Origin: Acidimicrobiia bacterium
GTDB lineage: Bacteria > Actinomycetota > Acidimicrobiia > Spongiisociales > ZC4RG35
NCBI GenBank assembly: GCA_965203555.1
Contig: CBDBCY010000004.1
Coordinates: 777,434 to 841,433, forward strand
DNA length: 64,000 nt
Direction: 5' to 3'
Shown piece by piece: positions 11,137 to 26,330 of this stretch. Each line of letters starts with the position of its first letter. Within the stretch, counting starts at the first letter, position 1. The translations under genes and the position numbers were made by a program. A model generated the notes under the pieces. That model had not been told where the DNA came from, did not search any database, and saw only the letters and a program-made list of their open reading frames with translations.

Positions 11137-12222
11137 CTATCGGGGTCGGCGGCGACTGCGGCGACGCTTGGGCGGGCGGGGCGGCGCCGACCCTTCCATG
11201 GAGAAGAGTTCGGCGGAGGTGGGGGCCGGTTTGGGGGCCTCTTCGACTTCCGGGACTGCCTCGGGTTCGGCGCCGCTCCGCTTTCGGGCGACCCTGCGAC
11301 GCTGGTCCATCCAGGAGTATTCCCGCTCTCTCCAGACCGCCAACAGAGGAGAGGCCACGAAGATGGACGAGTAGGTCCCCGCCCCGATGCCCACGAACAA
11401 TGCCAGCGAGAAGTCACGCAGCGGGGCAGCGCCCAGGATCAGGGATCCCACGAACAGGATGCTTCCCACCGGTATCAAGGACGTGAGGGAAGTGTTTATG
11501 GACCGGGCCAGCACCATGTTCATGGACCGGTTAACTATCTCCGAGTAGGTCAGGACGTCTCCGTAGTCACTTTCCAACTCCCTCACCCGGTCGAATACCA
11601 CCACCGTGTCATAGAGCGAGTAACCCAAAACGGTGAGCGCCGCCACCACCGTGGCCGGGGTTACCTCGAAACGAGTGATGGCATAGATGCCGATGGTGAT
11701 CATCAGGTCGTGCAACAGGGCAACGATTCCCGACAGCGCCATTTTCCACTGCAGTCGGATGGAGATGAAGATCACCACCGCCCCCAGAAACACGCCCAGT
11801 GCCCACAGGGCACGACGGGCCACCAACGCGCCAAAGGTCGGACCCACTGCCTGGCGGTTGACATCCTCGGGCGGAGCGCCGACCAGGGCGGCCACGGTCG
11901 CCACCATCTCGTCCTCGATTTCGGAGGGTATCGGTCCGGTTTGAATCCGCAGGCTGCGGCCATCGTCTATCTCCTGGATGCGGGAATCAACCACCCCCAA
12001 ATCGGTCAGGGCGGCTTCCAGTTCACCGACGTTCACCCCGCTTCGATTGTCGGACTGCACCTGCACGCCGCCGGTGAATTCCAAGCCCAGATTCAGGCCG
12101 AAGATTCCCGCCGTCAATGCGGAGACAACCAGCAAGGCCGCCGAAACGTAGAACCACCGACGGCGAAGGCCGACAAAATCGATCTGGGTCTCGCCCCGGG
12201 AGATCTTCTGCCAGAGGTTCAT
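11137..12222 (-). CDS. secF: protein translocase subunit SecF
   Basis: Starts at MNLWQKISRGETQIDFVGLRRRW (ATG 12222, overlapping the secD stop). Multi-TM SecF pattern and a P/R/K-rich tail. Confidence 0.92.
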   Translation of the reverse strand: MNLWQKISRGETQIDFVGLRRRWFYVSAALLVVSALTAGIFGLNLGLEFTGGVQVQSDNRSGVNVGELEAALTDLGVVDSRIQEIDDGRSLRIQTGPIPSEIEDEMVATVAALVGAPPEDVNRQAVGPTFGALVARRALWALGVFLGAVVIFISIRLQWKMALSGIVALLHDLMITIGIYAITRFEVTPATVVAALTVLGYSLYDTVVVFDRVRELESDYGDVLTYSEIVNRSMNMVLARSINTSLTSLIPVGSILFVGSLILGAAPLRDFSLALFVGIGAGTYSSIFVASPLLAVWREREYSWMDQRRRVARKRSGAEPEAVPEVEEAPKPAPTSAELFSMEGSAPPRPPKRRRSRRRPR

Positions 12223-18352: not shown

Positions 18353-19096
18353 TCACCGGCCGGCCAGAGCCTCCAATATGTCGTCGCTGATCTCGAAGTT
18401 GGAATAGACGCTTTGCACATCATCCAGATCTTCCAAGGCATCCACCAACCGCAACACCCTGGGAGCGGTGCGACGATCGACCGGCACCTCCGTAATGGGC
18501 AGTTGCGTCACCTCCGCCGACTCGACGGCCAAACCCGACTCCTGCAGGGCGTCCCTCACACCCGTCATCTCACCCGGTGTGGTGATCACCTCCCAAGAAT
18601 CGCCCGTCTCCTTGATGTCCTCGGCGCCCGCCTCTAAGGCGGTAAGCAAGACGTCATCTTCTTCCCCGGCGGCGGCAATGACGCCCTTGGGCTGAAAGAG
18701 GTATCCCACCGATCCAGGTTCTCCCAAACTGCCCCCGTTGCGGGTGAAAACCGCCCGCACGTCAGAAGCTGCCCGCCGCCGGTTGTCAGTGAGCACCTGA
18801 ACGTACACCGCCACTCCCCCAGGCGCGTATCCCTCATACCAAAGCTCGTCGTAAGCCACCCCCCCTGTCTCTCCGGTGCCCCGCTTGATGGCTCGGCTGA
18901 TGTTGTCGTTGGGCATGGATGCCGCTTTGGCCTTGGCCACCGCCGCAGCCAGCGAATAGTTGGCGGCCGGGTCACCGCCACCCTTGCGCGCTTCCGATTC
19001 GATGGCCCTGGCCAATTTGGCAAACAGCTTCCCGCGGGCCGCATCCTGGCGTCCCTTGCGGTGTTTTATGTTCGCCCACTTGGAATGTCCCGCCAT
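18353..19096 (-). CDS. YebC/PmpR family transcriptional regulator
   Basis: 247 aa. MAGHSKWANIKHRKGRQDAARGKLFAKL. Confidence 0.95.
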   Translation of the reverse strand: MAGHSKWANIKHRKGRQDAARGKLFAKLARAIESEARKGGGDPAANYSLAAAVAKAKAASMPNDNISRAIKRGTGETGGVAYDELWYEGYAPGGVAVYVQVLTDNRRRAASDVRAVFTRNGGSLGEPGSVGYLFQPKGVIAAAGEEDDVLLTALEAGAEDIKETGDSWEVITTPGEMTGVRDALQESGLAVESAEVTQLPITEVPVDRRTAPRVLRLVDALEDLDDVQSVYSNFEISDDILEALAGR

Positions 19097-19102
19097 TTCG
19101 CC

Positions 19103-19684
19103 CTACTCCTCTCCGCCTTGCAACCACAGTCGGTGAATGCGGGAATCCTGCGTCAATTCCGGGTGAAACGAGGTGGCCGTCAAAGTCCTCGACCGCACCA
19201 TCACGGGATGTTTGCCGACCCGGGCCAGCACCTCCACCTCGCCGCCCACCTTCTCGACCCAGGGCGCCCTGATGAACACTGCGCGAAAGGGGTCTTCCAA
19301 TCCTTTCACTTCCAGGTCCATCTCAAAAGACTCGTTCTGTCGCCCGAAGGCGTTGCGCCGCACCACCACGTCCAAGACTCCCAGAAGCGGTTGATCTCCT
19401 TCTACGATGGAACCGGCCACCAGGATCATGCCCGCGCAGGTGGCCAGGGTGGGCAGACCGTCGAGCAGGGCGGCGCGCAGCGGCCGCAGCAGCCGGAACC
19501 GCTCCGCCAGACGACCGATGGTGGTTGACTCCCCTCCCGGAATCACCAAGCCGTCAATCCCCACCAGATCATCGGGGAGGCGCACCAGCCGGGTGGAGAC
19601 ATCCAGACGCTCAAGAGCCCACCGGTGCTCCCTGACATCCCCTTGCAGGGCCAGCACCCCTATGGTGGGCGGCATTATCACCAA
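19103..19684 (-). CDS. pdxT: pyridoxal 5'-phosphate synthase glutaminase subunit PdxT
   Basis: 193 aa. [31 protein letters not shown]. Confidence 0.95.
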
Positions 19685-20577
19685 CCCCGGGCGGCCAAAC
19701 GCTCAGCTGGTTCCAGGGTTCCTATCTCGATGCCCGCCATGGGCGCTCCCAGGCCTCGCGAGGCTTCAGCCACCATCTCCGGCCGATCCCAGAAGGTCGT
19801 GGCCTCCACGATGGCGGCGGCATAGGCGGCCGGGTCGGAGCTTTTGAATATCCCGCTGCCCACAAACACCCCGTCGCAACCCAGCGCCATCATCAACGCC
19901 GCGTCGGCGGGAGTGGCGAGCCCTCCGGCCGCGAAGTTCACCACCGGTAAACGCCCCAATTCCGCCACTTCCCCGACCAGTTCAACGGGAACTCGCATCT
20001 GTTGAGCCTGCCGGGCCATCTCCTCGTCGGACAGGTCGGCCAAACCTTCTATCTGGCTGGTAATGGCCCGCATGTGCCGTACCGCCTCCACCACATTCCC
20101 GGTGCCGGCTTCGCCCTTGGTTCGAATCATGGCTGCCCCCTCGGCGAGTCGCCGCAACCCCTCGCCAAGATCGCGGGCGCCACACACAAAGGGAGTGGTG
20201 AAGGGCCACTTGTCGACATGGTGTTCCTCATCGGCGGGAGTGAGTACCTCCGACTCGTCGATATAGTCCACCCCCAGAGTCTCCAATACCCTGGCTTCCA
20301 GGAAATGTCCGATCCGGCACTTCGCCATTACCGGTATGGTCACCGCGCCCATGATCTCGGTGACCTTGCCGGGATTGGCCATCCGAGCCACTCCCCCATC
20401 CTTGCGGATGTCGGAAGGAACCCGCTCCAGGGCCATCACCGCCACCGCACCCGCCTCTTCGGCGATCCGCGCCTGATCGGCGGTGACCACATCCATGATC
20501 ACCCCGCCCTTGAGCATGTCGGCCAGTCCCCGCTTCACCAACTCGGTCCCGGTCTTCATACCATTGCTCTGCTCCAT
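19678..20577 (-). CDS. pdxS: pyridoxal 5'-phosphate synthase lyase subunit PdxS
   Basis: From [30 protein letters not shown] to ...RLAARGW gives a canonical length of about 300 aa. The same frame stays open for 64 more codons up to a GTG at 20769 (see findings). Confidence 0.93.
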
Positions 20578-20810
20578 CCGCCATAGCGTACCAACCTCAC
20601 CGTCGCCCCCGTCCACAATACGTACTCCGACAAACCACGCCCTCTCTCCATTACCCCAGAAACCAACTCCGTCGGCCACCGCCAAGTCTCCCGTCAGAAC
20701 CCACCCATGTTCTGATTCCTGGTCCACCAAATCAAACCGGTTGTTGTACTTCCGAGCCACCTCCGCCACATAGAGGAGCGTGTACTGTCGCCGGTAGTGG
20801 TAGTGTCAAC

Positions 20811-21101
20811 CTATGAGGCCCGTTCGAGCGGTGACCAGATGGCCCTCGATGGTGTTGGTATGCACCATCCCGTCCGGCGCGTTTGTAGGCCTTGCCGGGG
20901 CTTCCTGCCGATATACGCCTCGTCCGCCTCCACAATGCCCTGTAGCAGTACCCTGCCTTGGCGGGTGGCCATCTCAGCCTGTATCCGAGCCTGCAAGTAC
21001 CATTCCGACTTCTGGTTCATGCCCCATGTCGCCCCCAAGCTGGTTACTCGACAGGCTTTCCTTGATAGAAACACGCCCCCTCTCCGATCGAGTCCTCCCA
21101 C
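20811..21101 (-). pseudogene. internal fragment of an IS1595-family (ISXO2-like) transposase, degraded
   Basis: 96-aa ORF contains ...LGATWGMNQKSEWYLQARIQAEM...LQGIVEADEAYIGRKPRQG. This matches the HTH-to-DDE junction of IS1595 transposases (VE-x-DETYIGGK motif). There is no zinc-ribbon N-terminus and no DDE core, and the frame breaks after the motif. Confidence 0.6.
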
Positions 21102-21240
21102 CGTGTTCTAGTGGCCACCGGCCCGAATCCTGACTGATTGCCCAAGGGGTGGTCCGGGTACAATGGGAGGTAGAGGGACAGGTTGGTCAAGTCGAGAAGC
21201 TACTTGTCCAAAAGGCGGAGCGCACAGGGGTGCAGATGCG

Positions 21241-22212
21241 ATGGGTGTTGGTGACACAGGTTTTGTTCCTACTTTGGCGGAGGCGGAACGCGCTGCCAAG
21301 GTGGTAGCTGGTGCGGGCGCCGGTCGGGTGTTGTTGTTCGGGTCGGTTGCCCGGGGCGAGGCTCACCGTCACAGTGACATCGACCTGATGGTGATTTACG
21401 ACGACCTTGATTACGGCGCTCGGCATCATCTCGCCATCGAACTGAAGCGTATGGCGCGTGCTGAGGTGGGCTGTTCTGTGGATGTTCATCTCACTGATCG
21501 TCCGGAGTGGAAGATGCGCACCGAACAGGTGGTCACATCTTTTGAGAACCGGGTCAAGAGCCAGGCGCTGTTGCTGGTGGACAAGAAACCTGGAAAGGTC
21601 GATTGGGACAAGGAGATGGTCATGCCGACAAGCGATTATGAAGAAGCGGTGGAGCGTCTCCACCAGGTAAGGAACGCGCTGATGACCATCTCGGCCAGCC
21701 TGGACCCGACCTCTTACCAACAACTCCTGGAGGAAACCGGCCAGGAGATAGAGGCATTCGCCGAATACGAACAGAGACTCGCCACGGGATGCGCGGCTGG
21801 GCACCTCACTGTGGAGACGGCCCTGAAGGCGCTGATCCATCTAACGGGTTCCCCAAAGGCTCAACCGTGGGGTCATAAGATCGACAAGCTGCTTTGTCAA
21901 CTCCCCGAACCGCACAGGAACGAGATCGATACGCGTCTAGCCGCTGTTGGAGTCACGGATCTTCAGAAGTGGCAGCAACAGGCCCGCTACGAACGATTTG
22001 TCAAACCCTCGCCCGAGGTGTTCACGGAGATAACCGAAGCGGCCTGCAGGGTGGCTCTATACACCGCCGACCAGTTCCCGCCGCACCTGGACATCGCCAC
22101 CAGCTTTTGGAGAAGGGTGTCTTACATAGAACAGGTGATCGCTAGTCGCGACCTCTACACAGGCCGAGACCGAGACGAGCGGGACGACCCGGGGCTTTCC
22201 TTCGATCTGTAG
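21241..22212 (+). CDS. fused minimal nucleotidyltransferase (MNT) + HEPN-domain protein
   Basis: N-terminal LLFGSVARGEAHRHSDIDLMV (the GS...DxD pol-beta NTase signature). C-terminal helical domain has AAGHLTVETALKALIHLTGSPKAQPWGHKIDKLLCQL (HEPN of the KNTase/PF05168 type). The ORF is open from 21163; ATG 21241 is chosen but the start is uncertain. Confidence 0.72.
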   Translation: MGVGDTGFVPTLAEAERAAKVVAGAGAGRVLLFGSVARGEAHRHSDIDLMVIYDDLDYGARHHLAIELKRMARAEVGCSVDVHLTDRPEWKMRTEQVVTSFENRVKSQALLLVDKKPGKVDWDKEMVMPTSDYEEAVERLHQVRNALMTISASLDPTSYQQLLEETGQEIEAFAEYEQRLATGCAAGHLTVETALKALIHLTGSPKAQPWGHKIDKLLCQLPEPHRNEIDTRLAAVGVTDLQKWQQQARYERFVKPSPEVFTEITEAACRVALYTADQFPPHLDIATSFWRRVSYIEQVIASRDLYTGRDRDERDDPGLSFDL

Positions 22213-22222
22213 TCTGGGAGGG

Positions 22223-22609
22223 ATGGCTGAGAGAAGCGCCGCCGAGAAAGTAATGATCCGCTGGCGACGGGCAAACAGTCCCGATACCCCACCGGCGGAG
22301 TTGGCAAGGTTGGCAACTGATCCCGACCCGTGGGTGCGGAGGGCTGTCGCGGAGAACCCGTCCACTCCGCCCGAGGTTCGGCAGCGGTTGAAGGAGGATC
22401 CCGACCCGAAAGTGCAGAAGGCAGCCACCATCGCCTGCCAGACCCAGGCGTGGGCTCTGGCCCAACCCGTAAAGCGGGTCACATTCGGATGGTTAGGACC
22501 CTGGTGGACAATCGCCACCGCGGTGGCGGTAGGAATGACCATCGGGGCAACGGTGGTGTGGCTCCTGCTGGGTGCCCTAATAGCTACGGCCTTAAATGGC
22601 ATCCTGTAG
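22223..22609 (+). CDS. small HEAT/LRV-repeat protein with C-terminal membrane anchor
   Basis: 128 aa. Two repeats (DPDPWVRRAVAENPSTPPEV / EDPDPKVQKAA) followed by a hydrophobic stretch WLGPWWTIATAVAVGMTIGATVVWLLLGALIATAL. Starts 10 nt after the preceding gene. Confidence 0.55.
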   Translation: MAERSAAEKVMIRWRRANSPDTPPAELARLATDPDPWVRRAVAENPSTPPEVRQRLKEDPDPKVQKAATIACQTQAWALAQPVKRVTFGWLGPWWTIATAVAVGMTIGATVVWLLLGALIATALNGIL

Positions 22610-22723
22610 CCGTTCTTAGTCCATATATCTGCTTTCTATACCGGCCTTCTCCGTGCCCGGTTTCCAAGCGGGGGTGGCGGCGCACGGTTCAAGCTAAACT
22701 CGTAGGAGAAGGGGGATTTCGGA

Positions 22724-23434
22724 GTGCAAACGAGGATAAGCCCGACACCGCTGCCGGTCGAGGAGACGTTTAGCGAGAAGACCAGGGCGTTCCTCGCTTA
22801 TGCGCGGAGTCTTCCCCCGATACCGCACGACGACGACCCGAACGGTTGGTTCTCGCAGATAGCCGCTCACTTGAAACGTTCCCCGAGACAACGACTGCAG
22901 CGGTGGGCGGCTTATGCTGATAGGTCGTTGCGGTTCGGTTGTGAACCCCGCGGGGAGGAGCATGTTCGGTTTGATCCTGTGCGGGTGTTGCGCACCCTTA
23001 CGGACCGGGGGGTTGATTTCGTGTTCGTGGGGATGGGCGCTGGGTATGTGCGGGGCGCTCCCTACCCCAGTTACAACACCGATATCACTCCCGGCATGGA
23101 GTCGGACAACTTGGCCCGGGTGGAAGAGGTGCTGGAGGTGTTGGAAGCGCGGCCGTTGGAGAGAGACGAGTGGGGGCCGGTCGAAGAACACACTCTTCCC
23201 GGGTACAGGCGGCTGATGACATCGGCGGGGATGGTAAACGTGGTGGATTCTCTTCCCGGGGTGGGCGGTTACGGGAGGGTCAAGACCAAAAGCGACATGG
23301 TGGAAGTTGCGGATGGGCTGTCGGTGCGGGTAGCAGCGATGGAGGACGTGATCTGCAGCAAGGAGGCAGTAGGCGAGTTGATCGTCGGGACACCACCCTA
23401 CGGCCGCATGATGGACGGTGTGGGCTTGTACTGA
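22724..23434 (+). CDS. nucleotidyltransferase-fold protein (toxin-antitoxin-like NTase family) with about 85-aa N-terminal extension
   Basis: 236 aa. GTG start with a strong SD (aggagaaggggg, 8-nt spacer). VLRTLTDRGVDFVFVGMGAGYVRGAPYPSYNTDITP...NLARVEEVLEVLEA...VRVAAMEDVICSKEAVG follows the (GG-x-A...HG...T-x-D-x-D-I...N...rL...AL) layout of an uncharacterised NTase family. The first acidic residue is replaced (NTD). Confidence 0.7.
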   Translation: MQTRISPTPLPVEETFSEKTRAFLAYARSLPPIPHDDDPNGWFSQIAAHLKRSPRQRLQRWAAYADRSLRFGCEPRGEEHVRFDPVRVLRTLTDRGVDFVFVGMGAGYVRGAPYPSYNTDITPGMESDNLARVEEVLEVLEARPLERDEWGPVEEHTLPGYRRLMTSAGMVNVVDSLPGVGGYGRVKTKSDMVEVADGLSVRVAAMEDVICSKEAVGELIVGTPPYGRMMDGVGLY

Positions 23435-23747
23435 TGTGCAAAGAGACTCTGGCGCTGAAGAACAAGTACGGCACAAAGTGGAACCTCTCGCCCGGATCTT
23501 AGAAACCTTCGCTGCCCACGGGGCGAACGTGGTAGTGATAGGAAACTACGGTGCTCTAATGCAGGGAGCGCGGGTGGAGACCGAGGACGCTGACATGGCT
23601 TATCAACGCACCGAGGAGAACCACCGGCCCACCTCACTCTCCGATGAACCCGGGGCGGTTCACCCGGAGTGGGGATTGTTTCCCAACCTTTCCCTCGCTT
23701 TCATGCTCTTACACCCCGAGGCGGCCTACGGCAACGACCAGATGTGA
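23418..23747 (+). pseudogene. truncated paralogue of the preceding NTase-fold gene
   Basis: ILETFAAHGANVVVIGNYGALMQGARVETEDADMAY repeats the N-terminal NTase motif of the 22724 gene and keeps DxD. The sequence then diverges and stops after about 45 more codons. No good SD, and it overlaps the upstream gene end. Confidence 0.35.
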
Positions 23748-23832
23748 TAGATCAAAACCACCGCATCCACAGGGCATGACGCCCATACCTTCTCCCCCGC
23801 TCCTATCGGAGGTGACGCCACTCGGACACGCC

Positions 23833-24873
23833 TCAGCTTCGGCTTATCGCCCGTTCGTAACATTCTCGATAGGCGGGACCCACCTGATCCCATGAGAACC
23901 GCGCGGCCCGCTCCTGCCCTGCCGCTGACAGGCTCTTTGCAAGCGAAGCATCTCCCAGCACGTCGGCTACCTGATCCACCATTGCCGGAACGCTTCCTGT
24001 GGCGAACAACCTGGCCGCCGGGCCCGCCACGTCCCGGAAGGAGGGAAGGTCGGAGGCGACCACGGCACAACCGGCGGTCATTGCCTCCACCAGCACGATC
24101 CCGAAACTCTCGCCTCCCAGGTTGGGCGCCACGTAAACCTCCGCAGACCTCAGGTTCCGCTCCTTTACCTCCTCGCTGACCCTGCCCAGGAAGACGACAC
24201 CTTCCGGAGGGTCCGGGCGGGCGGCGCCCATCACCACCAATTCGGCGTGGACGTGACGCACCTTTATCTGCGGCCAGGCCTCGAGCAACAGGTCCAGGCC
24301 CTTGCGAGGCTCATCCCGCCCCAGGAAGACCACCCGCCCCCTCCGCCGCTCCACCGCGTCCACGCCGAACGAGACATCAACTCCGTTGGGGATGATCCTC
24401 TCCGGACCCCATCCGGGTGCCAATGAACCGGCCGCCAGACGGCTCACCGCCGTCACCATGGTGTCCGGCCTCTGGAACGACCGTACCCACGGACCCAAGC
24501 CACGATACAACCTCCTCACCCAAGCGGGGGGGTCGGCATGAAAGGTCACGACCTTGGGGCCGGGGGCCCGCAAAGCGGCCACCCCCACCCTGGGCATCAG
24601 TGGTTCGTGTACGTGAGTCACCTCTCCCCATCTCATCGCCTCCGCCACCCGGCCCGCAACCCCCGTGGACAGAGAAATCGGCGCCACCGAACGGTTGGCC
24701 CGGACCCGGGTCACCCGCCCCACGGCGGCGCCCTGCTCCCCCGGAGGGAGCAACGGGGCGATCAATCGAACCTCATCCCCTCGGCTGCGCAGCCAGCCCG
24801 CCAGGCCCTGTACCTGTGCCTGGACGCCTCCGTCCCGGGTCAGGTCATAGGGCGATACCAGACAGACCCGCAT
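23833..24873 (-). CDS. pimA: GT4 glycosyltransferase, PimA-like (phosphatidylinositol mannosyltransferase)
   Basis: 346 aa. MRVCLVSPYDLTRDGGVQAQV, ESFGIVLVEAM. Position downstream of the PI-synthase and acyltransferase genes, as in mycobacteria. Confidence 0.85.
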   Translation of the reverse strand: MRVCLVSPYDLTRDGGVQAQVQGLAGWLRSRGDEVRLIAPLLPPGEQGAAVGRVTRVRANRSVAPISLSTGVAGRVAEAMRWGEVTHVHEPLMPRVGVAALRAPGPKVVTFHADPPAWVRRLYRGLGPWVRSFQRPDTMVTAVSRLAAGSLAPGWGPERIIPNGVDVSFGVDAVERRRGRVVFLGRDEPRKGLDLLLEAWPQIKVRHVHAELVVMGAARPDPPEGVVFLGRVSEEVKERNLRSAEVYVAPNLGGESFGIVLVEAMTAGCAVVASDLPSFRDVAGPAARLFATGSVPAMVDQVADVLGDASLAKSLSAAGQERAARFSWDQVGPAYRECYERAISRS

Positions 24874-24882
24874 GAACCGAGG

Positions 24883-25761
24883 TCAAATCCGGTCGGAGGG
24901 CCAGTTGGGCTGGAGGAGATGCCACTGCTCGGGCGCGACCCTGATCAGGTCCTCGAAAGCGTCGGCCATCAGTTGCGCGCCTGCGTGAAGCCTCTCCGAC
25001 AGGGGTCCTTCCCGGGGTATGGCCAGGGGAGGCTTCAGGACTGCCCGGTAGCGACTCTTCTTTTCGCAATAGACAGCGACCGGGATCACCGGGCGCCCCG
25101 AACGGATCCCCAGCACCAGCGGTCCGGCCGGAAGGGTGGTTTCTTCCCCGAAAAACTGCACCGGGATGCCCTTGCCGCTCAAGTCCCGGTCCGAAGGTAG
25201 GCAAACGGCGGTTCGACCGGCGAGTTTTCCCTGCAACTCGCCGAGAAGCCCCTTGCGAGCGAACACCACCTTAATTCCGGTCAAGGCCCTGACACGCGAA
25301 AACCAGTCCCTGATGTAGGAGTTGGCCAGATTCTCGGCCACGGCCACCACCTCGATGTTCATGCCCCATACCACCACACCGGCCATCTCCCAATTGCCGA
25401 GATGCGGAAGCACCACCACCACACCCCTTCCGTCCCTCAAAGCCCTCTCCAGTAACTCGAAACCCTCCAGGTCGAATCGGTCCGCTACCCGCTTCACATT
25501 GCGGGGTCCGGCCCACAGCGACTCACCCCAGTACCGCCCGTAGCTGGCGAACATCTTTCTCACCGCCTTGGATCGGCTCCCCAGCGCCATATCCAATCCG
25601 GTGCGATTGGCATGTCTTCCCGCCATACGCCGGTGACGGGGAAGAAGCATGGCGGCGATCACCCCGGCGGCGCCGCCGAATCGTTGCACAACCCACAGCG
25701 GCCAAACGTGCATGAACCCGGAAGCCGCTCTCACACCCCAGTAGGCGAGGCGTGCCCTCAC
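24883..25761 (-). CDS. lysophospholipid/lauroyl (HtrB-family) acyltransferase, PIM acyltransferase-like
   Basis: LPHLGNWEMAG (the HX4D-type region) and about 293 aa from GTG 25761, which overlaps the upstream stop (GTGA). The longer ORF reaching 26043 overlaps the phosphatidyltransferase gene. Confidence 0.85.
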   Translation of the reverse strand: MRARLAYWGVRAASGFMHVWPLWVVQRFGGAAGVIAAMLLPRHRRMAGRHANRTGLDMALGSRSKAVRKMFASYGRYWGESLWAGPRNVKRVADRFDLEGFELLERALRDGRGVVVVLPHLGNWEMAGVVVWGMNIEVVAVAENLANSYIRDWFSRVRALTGIKVVFARKGLLGELQGKLAGRTAVCLPSDRDLSGKGIPVQFFGEETTLPAGPLVLGIRSGRPVIPVAVYCEKKSRYRAVLKPPLAIPREGPLSERLHAGAQLMADAFEDLIRVAPEQWHLLQPNWPSDRI

Positions 25762-26330
25762 CGCTTCAGTTCTCTGTACGCAACCGAGAACCGGTGAAGG
25801 GCCGACATCCAGCACAGGACGGTCATCGCCCACAACATGGGCTCCACCCACCCGGTGAGCAATCCCAGCGCGAAAAGGATCACTCTCTCGGCGCGACCTA
25901 TTAGTCCCCCGGTTCCCTTCAATCCCTCCGCCTCGGCCCGGGCCCGCAGATACGGAATCATCAATGCGCCGCTCACCGACAGCACCACCAGCATTAGCAC
26001 CCGTGGTTCGCCGGCCCGGGCAACCGCCAACCCCGAAAAACAAGCCACCTCACCCAGCCGGTCCACCGAAGCGTCCAGAAACGCTCCCCGTTTTGTAACT
26101 TTGTCGGCCGCCCGGGCCAGCGTACCGTCCAGACCGTCGATCGCCGAACCTGCCAAAGCGATCAGCGACCCGACCACCAGATACTCAAGTGAAATGATCA
26201 CCGCTCCCACGATGGTGACCCCCAACCCGAACAGAGTGAGGGCGGCAGGACTGATCCCGCAGCGGTTCAAGAAGCGGCCGATGGGATCGAGCACCCTTCT
26301 CAGGTGAGGGCGTACCCAAATGTCGATCAC
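25758..26330 (-). CDS. pgsA: CDP-alcohol phosphatidyltransferase (PI-phosphate synthase-like)
   Basis: 190 aa. DGLDGTLAR...DASVDRLGE (the CDP-alcohol motif D-G-x2-A-R...D-x3-D), multi-TM. Confidence 0.9.
   Translation of the reverse strand: MIDIWVRPHLRRVLDPIGRFLNRCGISPAALTLFGLGVTIVGAVIISLEYLVVGSLIALAGSAIDGLDGTLARAADKVTKRGAFLDASVDRLGEVACFSGLAVARAGEPRVLMLVVLSVSGALMIPYLRARAEAEGLKGTGGLIGRAERVILFALGLLTGWVEPMLWAMTVLCWMSALHRFSVAYRELKR

Follow-up and report, generated by a model that had tools for sequence, protein, structure and literature searches.

The stretch of DNA analysed here, referred to as the window, comprises 64,000 nucleotides of the genome of an Acidimicrobiia bacterium (assembly GCA_965203555.1, contig CBDBCY010000004.1, positions 777,434 to 841,433). 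Its subject is an accessory islet between pdxS and a PimA-like glycosyltransferase gene (GT4), which carries four plus-strand open reading frames (ORFs): ORF1, a fusion of an MNT nucleotidyltransferase (NTase) core and a HEPN-like domain; LRV, encoding a protein with LRV/HEAT repeats; and ORF3 and ORF4, two NTase paralogues. The islet is read as a decaying cargo fragment of a mobile-element family in sponge-associated Acidimicrobiia, in which three independent modules stand side by side, namely an insertion sequence relic of the IS1595 family, ORF1 (with LRV after its stop codon) and the ORF3-ORF4 pair. The features are listed below in the order of their coordinates in the window.

19678-20577, minus strand: pdxS, left core flank (NCBIfam PdxS, E 1e-150, residues 69-363)
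20811-21101, minus strand: N-terminal relic of an IS1595-family transposase (NCBIfam transpos_IS1595, E 9.5e-8)
21127-21240, plus strand: leader of the ORF1 module (blastn homology to positions 12149 and 6928 of the related locus L001 starts at 21127)
21241-22212, plus strand: ORF1, an intact MNT and HEPN-like fusion of 323 residues (Polbeta/NTP_transf_2, E 6e-9)
22223-22609, plus strand: LRV, an LRV/HEAT-repeat protein of 128 residues (LRV_2, 40.3 bits)
22615-22641, plus strand: junction motif, CTTAGTCCATATATCTGC followed by TTTCTATAC (sole copy in the 64-kb window, 0 expected)
22724-23502, plus strand: ORF3 in its ancestral extent (actual end 23434), a predicted dead NTase paralogue with an N-terminal helical domain of 85 residues (family of 49 clusters)
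23478-23627, plus strand: ORF4 remnant, its first 50 codons (GNYG...TEDADM; 72-74% identity to the related locus L002, over residues 1-50 only)
23833-24873, minus strand: GT4 glycosyltransferase gene (PimA-like), right core flank (Pfam Glyco_trans_1_4 and Glycos_transf_1)

A first-pass annotation of this DNA had described an accessory interval resembling a mobile element, with four plus-strand ORFs and a transposase relic. This description is supported, and the ORFs and the relic lie where it had placed them, with four corrections.

The ORF3-ORF4 pair

ORF3 has no match in Pfam, NCBIfam, PADLOC or PHROGs, full-length ORF4 proteins (167-172 residues) have none in PADLOC, NCBIfam or PHROGs, and sequence and profile searches of ORF3 against the PDB returned noise only (PhnK, NDUFA5); the fold search alone was informative. 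The AlphaFold model of ORF3 (predicted local distance difference test score, pLDDT, 84.8) matches, in this order, MenT1 (8an5_B, E 1e-5, probability 1.0), TM1012, ANT(2'')-Ia, JHP933 and LnuA, and the NTase domain begins near residue 85, which bears out the earlier proposal of an NTase-fold protein with an extra N-terminal region of about 85 residues. ORF4, previously described as a truncated paralogue of ORF3, is indeed paralogous to the C-domain of ORF3 (hhalign 98.7%, E 1.7e-16; tblastn 30-36% identity over 134-149 residues), its start being moved here to the GTG at 23478 and its homology limited to 50 codons. The ORF4 profile gives a weak match to TM1012 (PDB 4hx0, E 0.026), as well as weak matches to DUF2204 and DUF6036 (E 0.009-0.08) and to ANT(2'').

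In a joint alignment the consensus of this clan of proteins is T-x-D-x-D-I-T-P ... G-x-x-D ... SKEA-x-RPKDR. Proteins of the ORF4 type show the NTase signature in full (G..G, T-x-D-x-D, G-D-x-D and SK...R-x-K-D), and those of the ORF3 type, which read N-T-D-I-T-P and G-M-V-N, have Asn instead of Asp at the first and third catalytic positions, a change nearly invariant in the family, and are devoid of the RPKDR motif. Judged from these residues, ORF3 is a catalytically dead NTase paralogue. Its N-terminal domain of 85 residues carries an 'SPxER(L/M)' helix common to relatives fused to a helix-turn-helix (HTH) domain, and as this linker helix is shared, the domain may derive from a degenerate DNA-binding module similar to an antitoxin. 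Three such NTase relatives of ORF3 and ORF4 (P0197, P0202 and P0203) are fusions to an N-terminal Xre-type HTH and have the linker helix 'SPExRL' in common with ORF3.

A search of 1.84 billion representative proteins with the ORF3 profile recovered 2437 relatives (clusters at 50% identity), 391 of these clusters at E < 1e-10. The genuine ORF3 type makes up about 15 clusters at 50% identity, or 49 at 90%, and the remaining relatives are single-domain NTases of 160-175 residues or Xre-type HTH fusions, with weak DUF6036, DUF2204 and ANT(2'') signals.

Inactivation of the window copy

In the window, ORF3 carries a frameshift caused by a 2-nt insertion at 23422-23423, so that the frame ends at 23434 instead of 23502 and the last 24 residues are replaced. 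This is not an assembly error, since an independent assembly of a public run yielded an 11,967-nt contig whose sequence agrees with the window at every position of 21495-24100. In a related strain from another run (~95% identity) the 2 nt at 23422 are absent and T23426A is present, by which the family consensus ...MMDGVHVLMCKETLAL... is restored and the protein reads MDGVHVLMCKE. The homology of ORF4 stops at 23627 in every frame, leaving motifs I and II only, and the open frame runs on without homology to 23747. In the related strain (X3) homology also breaks at this point, that to the flank on the GT4 side beginning at 23635; the loss of ORF4 is explained by a deletion endpoint and not by a frameshift. 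Cloning of 21163-23747, which had been suggested for toxicity and phage-challenge assays, would consequently carry ORF3 with its frameshift and no more of ORF4 than the first 50 codons.

Pairwise ratios of nonsynonymous to synonymous substitution rates (dN/dS) range from 0.13 to 0.37 across the four genes. The low values of ORF3 (0.13-0.22), together with the intact allele in the related strain, indicate that its lesion is recent, and those of ORF1 (0.18-0.21 versus three homologues) and LRV (0.26-0.37) make both look like living genes; judged by these ratios, the two are probably under purifying selection and still functional. Decay of all four genes to pseudogenes had been named beforehand as an outcome that would speak against an active cassette, and it is seen in part, in that ORF3 and ORF4 have become pseudogenes in the window and ORF1 and LRV retain their full length.

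These values also bear on the view that the whole interval is functionless junk with all four ORFs decaying. The frameshift, the truncation and the transposase relic agree with such a view, as do the lack of integrase, recombinase and AbiE genes in the window and the promoter and terminator scans, which gave no signal above shuffled controls. However, with ORF1 and LRV complete and constrained and the ORF3 lesion of recent date, it is rather unlikely.

Gene associations in related loci

Thirteen related loci found through ORF3, five found through LRV and three more were examined; where a locus has to be told apart it is given its number (L001 and onwards). In most of them ORF3 is followed by ORF4 or an ORF4 remnant, usually with an overlap of 14-25 nt. 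Both genes are intact in 11 loci, ORF3 is intact and ORF4 frameshifted, truncated or absent in seven, none has an intact ORF4 and a broken ORF3, and both genes are broken in the window and in the second copy of L013. The four genes are not a single system; among the loci examined, none outside the window holds all of them, and judged from gene order the ORF3-ORF4 pair is the only conserved multi-gene unit of the islet. The first-pass annotation had treated the four genes as one system, with the MNT-HEPN fusion and LRV as a pair to be followed across genomes. What stands of this are the ORF3-ORF4 and ORF3-ORF4-LRV associations, which are real; co-occurrence of the four genes is absent from other loci, ORF1 is mostly solitary, and LRV elsewhere follows ORF4 and not ORF1.

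Several genomes carry the pair two or three times, OY762464.1 with two copies and bin76 (MPNA01), a metagenome-assembled genome (MAG), with three, and in related loci it adjoins transposases, AbiEi/AbiEii, ParA, DnaB and a tyrosine recombinase. Tandem duplications of ORF3-ORF4 are seen in L112 (1-3340, both ORF4 copies frameshifted) and L013 (4400-6866, both genes of the second copy broken). The module-bearing contigs L111 (1-20742), L110, L112 and L001 look like plasmids or integrative elements, with a content of ParA, DnaB helicase, GmrSD_C, an SbcCD-like pair, AbiEi/AbiEii, IS110, IS605/TnpB, ISL3 and a Cas1 fragment; L001 and L111 are from the same sample and have an identical AbiEi. The loci derive from Acidimicrobiia MAGs, of which at least bin76 belongs to a symbiont of the sponge Aplysina aerophoba, and sponge symbionts were reported in the same study to be enriched in toxin-antitoxin and restriction-modification genes (PMC5649159).

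Comparison with MenAT and AbiE systems

Of the known systems, the ORF3-ORF4 pair most resembles MenAT1 (Rv0078B-Rv0078A) and AbiE, though with a type of partner that appears unprecedented and outside DUF1814. As noted above, the ORF3 model matches no PDB structure better than that of MenT1. The key residues of MenT1 are T39, D41, D43, K137 and D152 (PMC10435456, PMC11375011), and in ORF4 T35-x-D37-x-D39, K136 and an acidic motif further downstream stand near these positions (D149/D152 of MenT1 in the case of the acidic motif). The Pol-beta NTase fold with motifs I and II, as in MenT and AbiEii, is found in the ORF4 family (GNYGA...T-E-D-A-D and G-D-V-D); its SK...RxKD motif is equivalent to motifs III and IV of DUF1814 in position only. 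As in MenAT and AbiE, the NTase gene is preceded on the same strand by that of its partner and the two are closely linked, ORF3 coming before ORF4 with the short overlap given above, and the genes are patchy, multi-copy and adjoin genuine AbiEi/AbiEii pairs. Unlike in these systems, the partner is a dead NTase paralogue of 250 residues with a novel N-terminal domain, and not the 68-residue MenA1 peptide or the winged helix-turn-helix AbiEi/MenA3.

At the level of sequence, the closest relatives of ORF4 are TM1012, DUF6036 and DUF2204. The 391-cluster set resembles the DUF6036 clan in size (160-175 residues) and in the consensus T-x-D-x-D-I-T-P ... SKEA-x-RPKDR, and some of its members pass or approach the DUF6036 threshold. 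In contrast to the ORF3 branch, with its Asp-to-Asn replacements and with a gene of the ORF4 type next to it in most loci, the proteins of this clan are single, active-looking domains or Xre-type HTH fusions. A literature search for DUF6036 found no published function.

The reading to which these data lean, with modest confidence, is a composite one, in which the islet is a degenerate fragment of mobile-element cargo carrying a pair similar to toxin-antitoxin genes that has been inactivated here. Its descriptive part is held with high confidence, and the claim of three NTase-fold modules with the look of a toxin-antitoxin or defence island is supported, as is the claim that no named system corresponds to them, PADLOC, NCBIfam and PHROGs being null for ORF3, full-length ORF4 and LRV. 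The toxin-antitoxin mechanism itself is plausible but tentative, falling slightly on the doubtful side. According to this proposal ORF4 would be a MenT1-like toxin that nucleotidylates cellular RNA, most likely extending or blocking the 3' ends of tRNA, and ORF3 would be the cognate neutraliser, a dead paralogue that may heterodimerise with or sequester ORF4, or occupy its substrate. In the window the toxin gene would have been truncated first, and the now useless ORF3 would have been frameshifted thereafter. The asymmetric decay (seven loci versus none) fits a toxin which can be lost freely and an antitoxin which cannot be lost first.

Several observations weigh against this composite reading. 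The likeness to MenT1 is one of fold only (17-18% identity, TM-scores of 0.39-0.48). Neither ORF3, ORF4 nor their homologues match the AbiEii/DUF1814 family PF08843 at E up to 5, or an AbiE model of PADLOC. This fold is shared by antibiotic nucleotidyltransferases (ANT(2''), LnuA) and by TM1012, a protein of no known role. The decay asymmetry is biased, most loci having been found through ORF3 and ORF3-less loci being less sampled. It is for every member of the ORF3 and ORF4 families that we infer toxicity, neutralisation and substrate. The loss of function in ORF3 would follow from the replacement of its last 24 residues, and the islet would be an insertion between pdxS and GT4 judged by composition, strand switch and the known actinobacterial synteny.

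There is an alternative in which ORF3-ORF4 would be a heteromeric NTase of a small molecule (an antibiotic or a metabolite), with a catalytic ORF4 and a regulatory or substrate-binding ORF3, acting on a compound of the sponge holobiont, and in which ORF1 would be a KNTase-like resistance enzyme. The matches of the ORF3 model to ANT(2'')-Ia, LnuA and JHP933 and those of the ORF1 model to the two-domain enzymes LinB, ANT(4'), AadA and AAD(9) are in agreement with this, and ORF4 has weak matches to Pfam Aminoglyc_resit. However, the E-values of all these matches are poor (1e-3 to 1e-2) and their scores fall short of the family cut-offs, the NCBIfam ANT models giving 14-15 bits against 193-350. 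Multi-copy and often pseudogenised genes arrayed beside AbiE, insertion sequence and recombinase genes are more typical of addiction or defence cargo, and if ORF4 were the catalytic subunit of an enzyme of use to its host, one would not expect it to be the gene that is lost. The alternative is distinctly unlikely.

Should the toxin-antitoxin interpretation of ORF3-ORF4 hold, the pair would represent a new neutralisation logic for NTase toxins of the MenT/AbiE kind, with a pseudo-enzyme paralogue as antitoxin, and would open a first way to the function of a large, unannotated clan of small NTases with DUF6036 and TM1012 among its relatives (the 2437 clusters recovered above). What the islet preserves is a decayed copy, of value as a guide to the family in its intact form and to the arrays of cassette-like modules described below.

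ORF1 and the LRV-repeat protein

The true start of ORF1 is the ATG at 21241 and not position 21163, as homologues and a database entry begin there. Its NTase core (GSVARG...SDIDL) contains FGSVARGEAHRHSDIDL, which is unvarying in an alignment of 43 family sequences, and shows the GS-x9-13-DxD arrangement of type VII MNT proteins. The family profile matches the MNT structure 1wot (9e-9), MntA (5yep), HI0073, HalB and the HEPN protein TT1696 (5e-3). The C-domain is helical and bears signatures of the PF05168 type, E-x3-K-A-L-I-H and ARY (VETALKALIHL...WGH...ARY), with R139, R179, E192, K196, H200 and H212 as invariant residues. In the earlier description as an MNT-HEPN fusion, the MNT core is thus clear and the fusion intact, and the HEPN part is weak, its Pfam match (E 1.8e-3) reaching 18.9 bits against a cut-off of 22. 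Scores are likewise under every curated equivalog cut-off, as for MntA (E 5e-9, but 36 bits against 60). The protein aligns end to end with its homologues (73-79% identity), and its model (pLDDT 90) resembles the two-domain enzymes named above, if weakly.

The MNT core joined to a HEPN-like helical domain recalls the type VII system HepT-MntA, and the overall two-domain architecture recalls KNTase-like enzymes (ANT(4'), LinB). Unlike HepT-MntA, ORF1 is a single polypeptide with the HEPN-like domain fused to MNT in place of a separate HEPN toxin, and no conserved Rx4-6H RNase motif was found in the 43-sequence alignment. A further difference from both groups is that the closest ORF1 relatives, in Acidimicrobiia records, add a disordered C-terminal tail, which in ORF1 itself reads PGLSFDL-stop. 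The family comprises 323 clusters and has several copies in one genome; the 3.14-Mb contig from which the window is taken holds two further members. It is often a lone gene, distant members being solitary in unrelated contexts, and lies within 3 kb of an ORF3-ORF4 pair in six of ~20 loci. Exact-protein look-ups of the window ORF1 and ORF3 and of the two ORF1 paralogues of the same genome gave no returns.

The LRV protein starts 10 nt after the ORF1 stop codon and passes the thresholds of LRV_2 (40.3 bits, cut-off 27) and LRV (37.6 bits, cut-off 21.6, in two stretches). It has two LRV repeats of 26 residues, reflected in a DNA repeat period of 78 nt (repeat family D1), and a conserved C-terminal transmembrane helix (FGWLGPWWTIATAVAVG...; Kyte-Doolittle mean over 19 residues 2.1); the LRV_2 score and the hydropathy confirm the membrane-anchored repeat protein of 128 residues that had been called at this position. 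Only three LRV clusters were found in 5.8 billion proteins, two besides that of the window, and the order is ORF3-ORF4-LRV in all five LRV-bearing contigs outside the window (L093-L097), where LRV starts immediately behind the stop codon of ORF4. No LRV gene was found beside the other ORF1 copies examined.

This gene order is relevant to the idea that ORF1 and LRV form a two-gene defence similar to Hailong, where ORF1 would be a HalB-like, signal-making NTase restraining a membrane effector. In its favour, ORF1 matches NCBIfam HalB (E 1.1e-7) and HalB structures as well as the PADLOC candidate models PDC-S09 and PDC-M05A (~1e-11), and the adjacent LRV has a transmembrane helix. The HalB match, however, covers 44 residues of the NTase core with 31.7 bits against a cut-off of 190, and LRV has a single transmembrane helix and no PADLOC or NCBIfam match that would make it a HalA. 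Its placement after ORF4 in L093-L097, and the other ORF1 copies without it, led to rejection of the idea on gene-neighbourhood grounds, and it is considered very improbable.

The LRV gene sits between the stop codon of the GLSFDL tail and the junction motif in two contexts, after ORF1 (window 22213-22609) and after ORF4 (L093 5185-5550, L095 2516-2908). Its 3' end, CCTGTAG, mimics the GATCTGTAG end of the tail, and the window copy has gained 10 nt with a GGGAGGG ribosome-binding site. To judge from these borders, the LRV gene resembles a small cassette that has been inserted at CTGTAG.

A junction motif and a tyrosine recombinase

The junction motif consists of ~27 bp, CTTA[CG]TCCNNATATCT[AG]C and ~9 semi-conserved bases (yWTnTATcc), and follows the GLSFDL-stop tail at 6-9 nt. 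Nineteen instances were found, one in the window and 18 in L001, L003, L006, L008, L095, L096 and L110-L112. The left flanks are mosaic, being the tail in 11, the LRV end in three and other sequence in five, and the right flanks are an ORF1 leader (of two types), an ORF3 leader or a leader of ~110 nt which precedes a gene for an Xer-like tyrosine recombinase and contains an inverted copy of the motif core. The recombinase-type leader occurs in four instances, followed by the recombinase gene or a remnant of it in L111, L110 and L006; none was detected in L001. In L112 the array reads [ORF3-ORF4]-motif-[ORF3-ORF4]-motif-[ORF1], and the recombinase follows ~600 nt further on without a motif, and then AbiE. 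The motif of the window stands after LRV and before a leader of the ORF3 type. In other loci the homology to the ORF1 leader starts ~8 nt to the right of the motif end (L001 12126-12143 and 6905-6922); in the window the motif upstream of ORF1 is missing, and the homology starts exactly at the junction with the IS1595 relic. The simplest interpretation of these flanks would be that the motif is a module junction, and it is possibly the site of the recombinase.

The tail, [GE]L[SA]F[DG]L, ends the closest ORF1 relatives (21 of the 120 family members listed) and about half of the full-length ORF4 proteins, and was found in none of 49 ORF3 proteins and none of 147 broader NTases. PGLSFDL-stop is thus present on two NTase families, ORF1 and full-length ORF4, and is kept at the DNA level too (window 22192-22212; L001 13211-13231; L006 7874-7894, 9198-9218 and 10265-10285; L002 9230-9250; L008 4564-4584). 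It resembles QLSLPL, a hexapeptide motif for binding the beta clamp. The tail may nevertheless be a partly translated piece of the recombination site and not a docking peptide.

Two other explanations of the motif were discarded. An origin in phages was rejected because a scan of viral contigs gave 12 matches, the number expected by chance, with unrelated flanks and no related proteins. A structured RNA or attC-like element was considered as short inverted repeats flank the motif in some copies (L006, window), but these are not found in L001 and L003.

The related loci share with integron cassette arrays the tandem modules (ORF1, ORF3-ORF4) parted by one motif, the four arrays that end in the motif and the ~110-nt leader, and the freely recombined motif flanks. 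Unlike in integrons, the recombinase is co-directional with the array and the motif lacks an imperfect palindrome of the attC kind. For the recombinases of L111 and L112 the best matches are to Xer-type models, and their scores with the models of integron integrases are only 19-34 bits against a cut-off of 265; neither the IntI-type integrase nor the attC sites of an integron are present. The window, moreover, holds one motif and no recombinase, and we infer recombination at the motif from its flanks in the related loci.

A bolder, two-part proposal is that ORF3-ORF4 represents a new class of NTase toxin-antitoxin systems, whose antitoxin would be a dead duplicate of the toxin, with Asn for Asp at two metal ligands and with a new N-terminal domain, and that this pair, the MNT-HEPN fusion and LRV are shuffled as cassettes by the Xer-like recombinase at a core of ~27 bp overlapping the 3' end of the upstream gene. 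Such an overlap would explain the same GLSFDL-stop tail on unrelated proteins, and the system would amount to integron-like cassettes specific to sponge-associated Acidimicrobiia. Taken together, the two parts are possible but doubtful. The motif and the recombinase suggest a way in which the toxin-antitoxin and defence genes known to be in excess in sponge symbionts (PMC5649159) may be brought together.

The IS1595 relic and the borders of the islet

The transposase relic spans profile positions 21-89 of 215 only, with ~60 matching residues. It has no DDE domain (Pfam DDE_Tnp_IS1595 matches only at E 0.033) and no flanking terminal inverted repeats were found, so that both the complete DDE transposase and the termini of an IS1595 insertion sequence are lacking; the decayed fragment that had been recognised earlier is borne out in this form.

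NCBIfam and Pfam confirm that the flanks are core genes on the minus strand, as first described, with YebC, PdxT and PdxS (18353-20769) to the left and GT4, a phosphatidylinositol mannoside (PIM) acyltransferase (E 1.3e-54) and a phosphatidylinositol phosphate (PIP) synthase (E 1e-33) to the right (23833-26330). The order RuvB, RuvA, YebC-PdxT-PdxS, PimA-like GT4, acyltransferase and PI(P) synthase corresponds to the arrangement conserved in actinobacteria, which is Rv2592c-Rv2612c in M. tuberculosis. Between the flanks the strand switches, with four plus-strand ORFs and one short minus-strand ORF, the G+C content falls to 0.57-0.60 from 0.62-0.70, and the GC skew changes sign. With regard to the earlier suggestion that the pdxS-pimA interval may be a recombination hotspot, the 13 related loci L001-L013 were tested and contain neither pdxS nor GT4. 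A search for direct or inverted repeats at the borders of the 3-kb interval found none, and an Rfam scan of 20500-24000 returned no family at E up to 1.

The pdxS frame as listed (363 residues) reaches 20769 and is over-extended, and the true start is likely near 20577 or 20559. The accessory interval is placed at ~20580-23832, since PdxS models begin at residue 69 of the listed frame and the contigs of other strains part from the window to the right of 20540. The ~64 codons upstream of pdxS that are not of PdxS (20578-20769, minus strand) have faint matches (E ~0.01) to the C-terminal region of acyl-CoA ligases, and may be the relic of another gene at the left edge of the islet. In run X1, one low-depth contig joins 22360 to 23121 and skips 760 nt, with 22 nt only on one side; this joint probably arose during assembly, although a deletion variant without the 3' end of LRV and the 5' half of ORF3 is conceivable.

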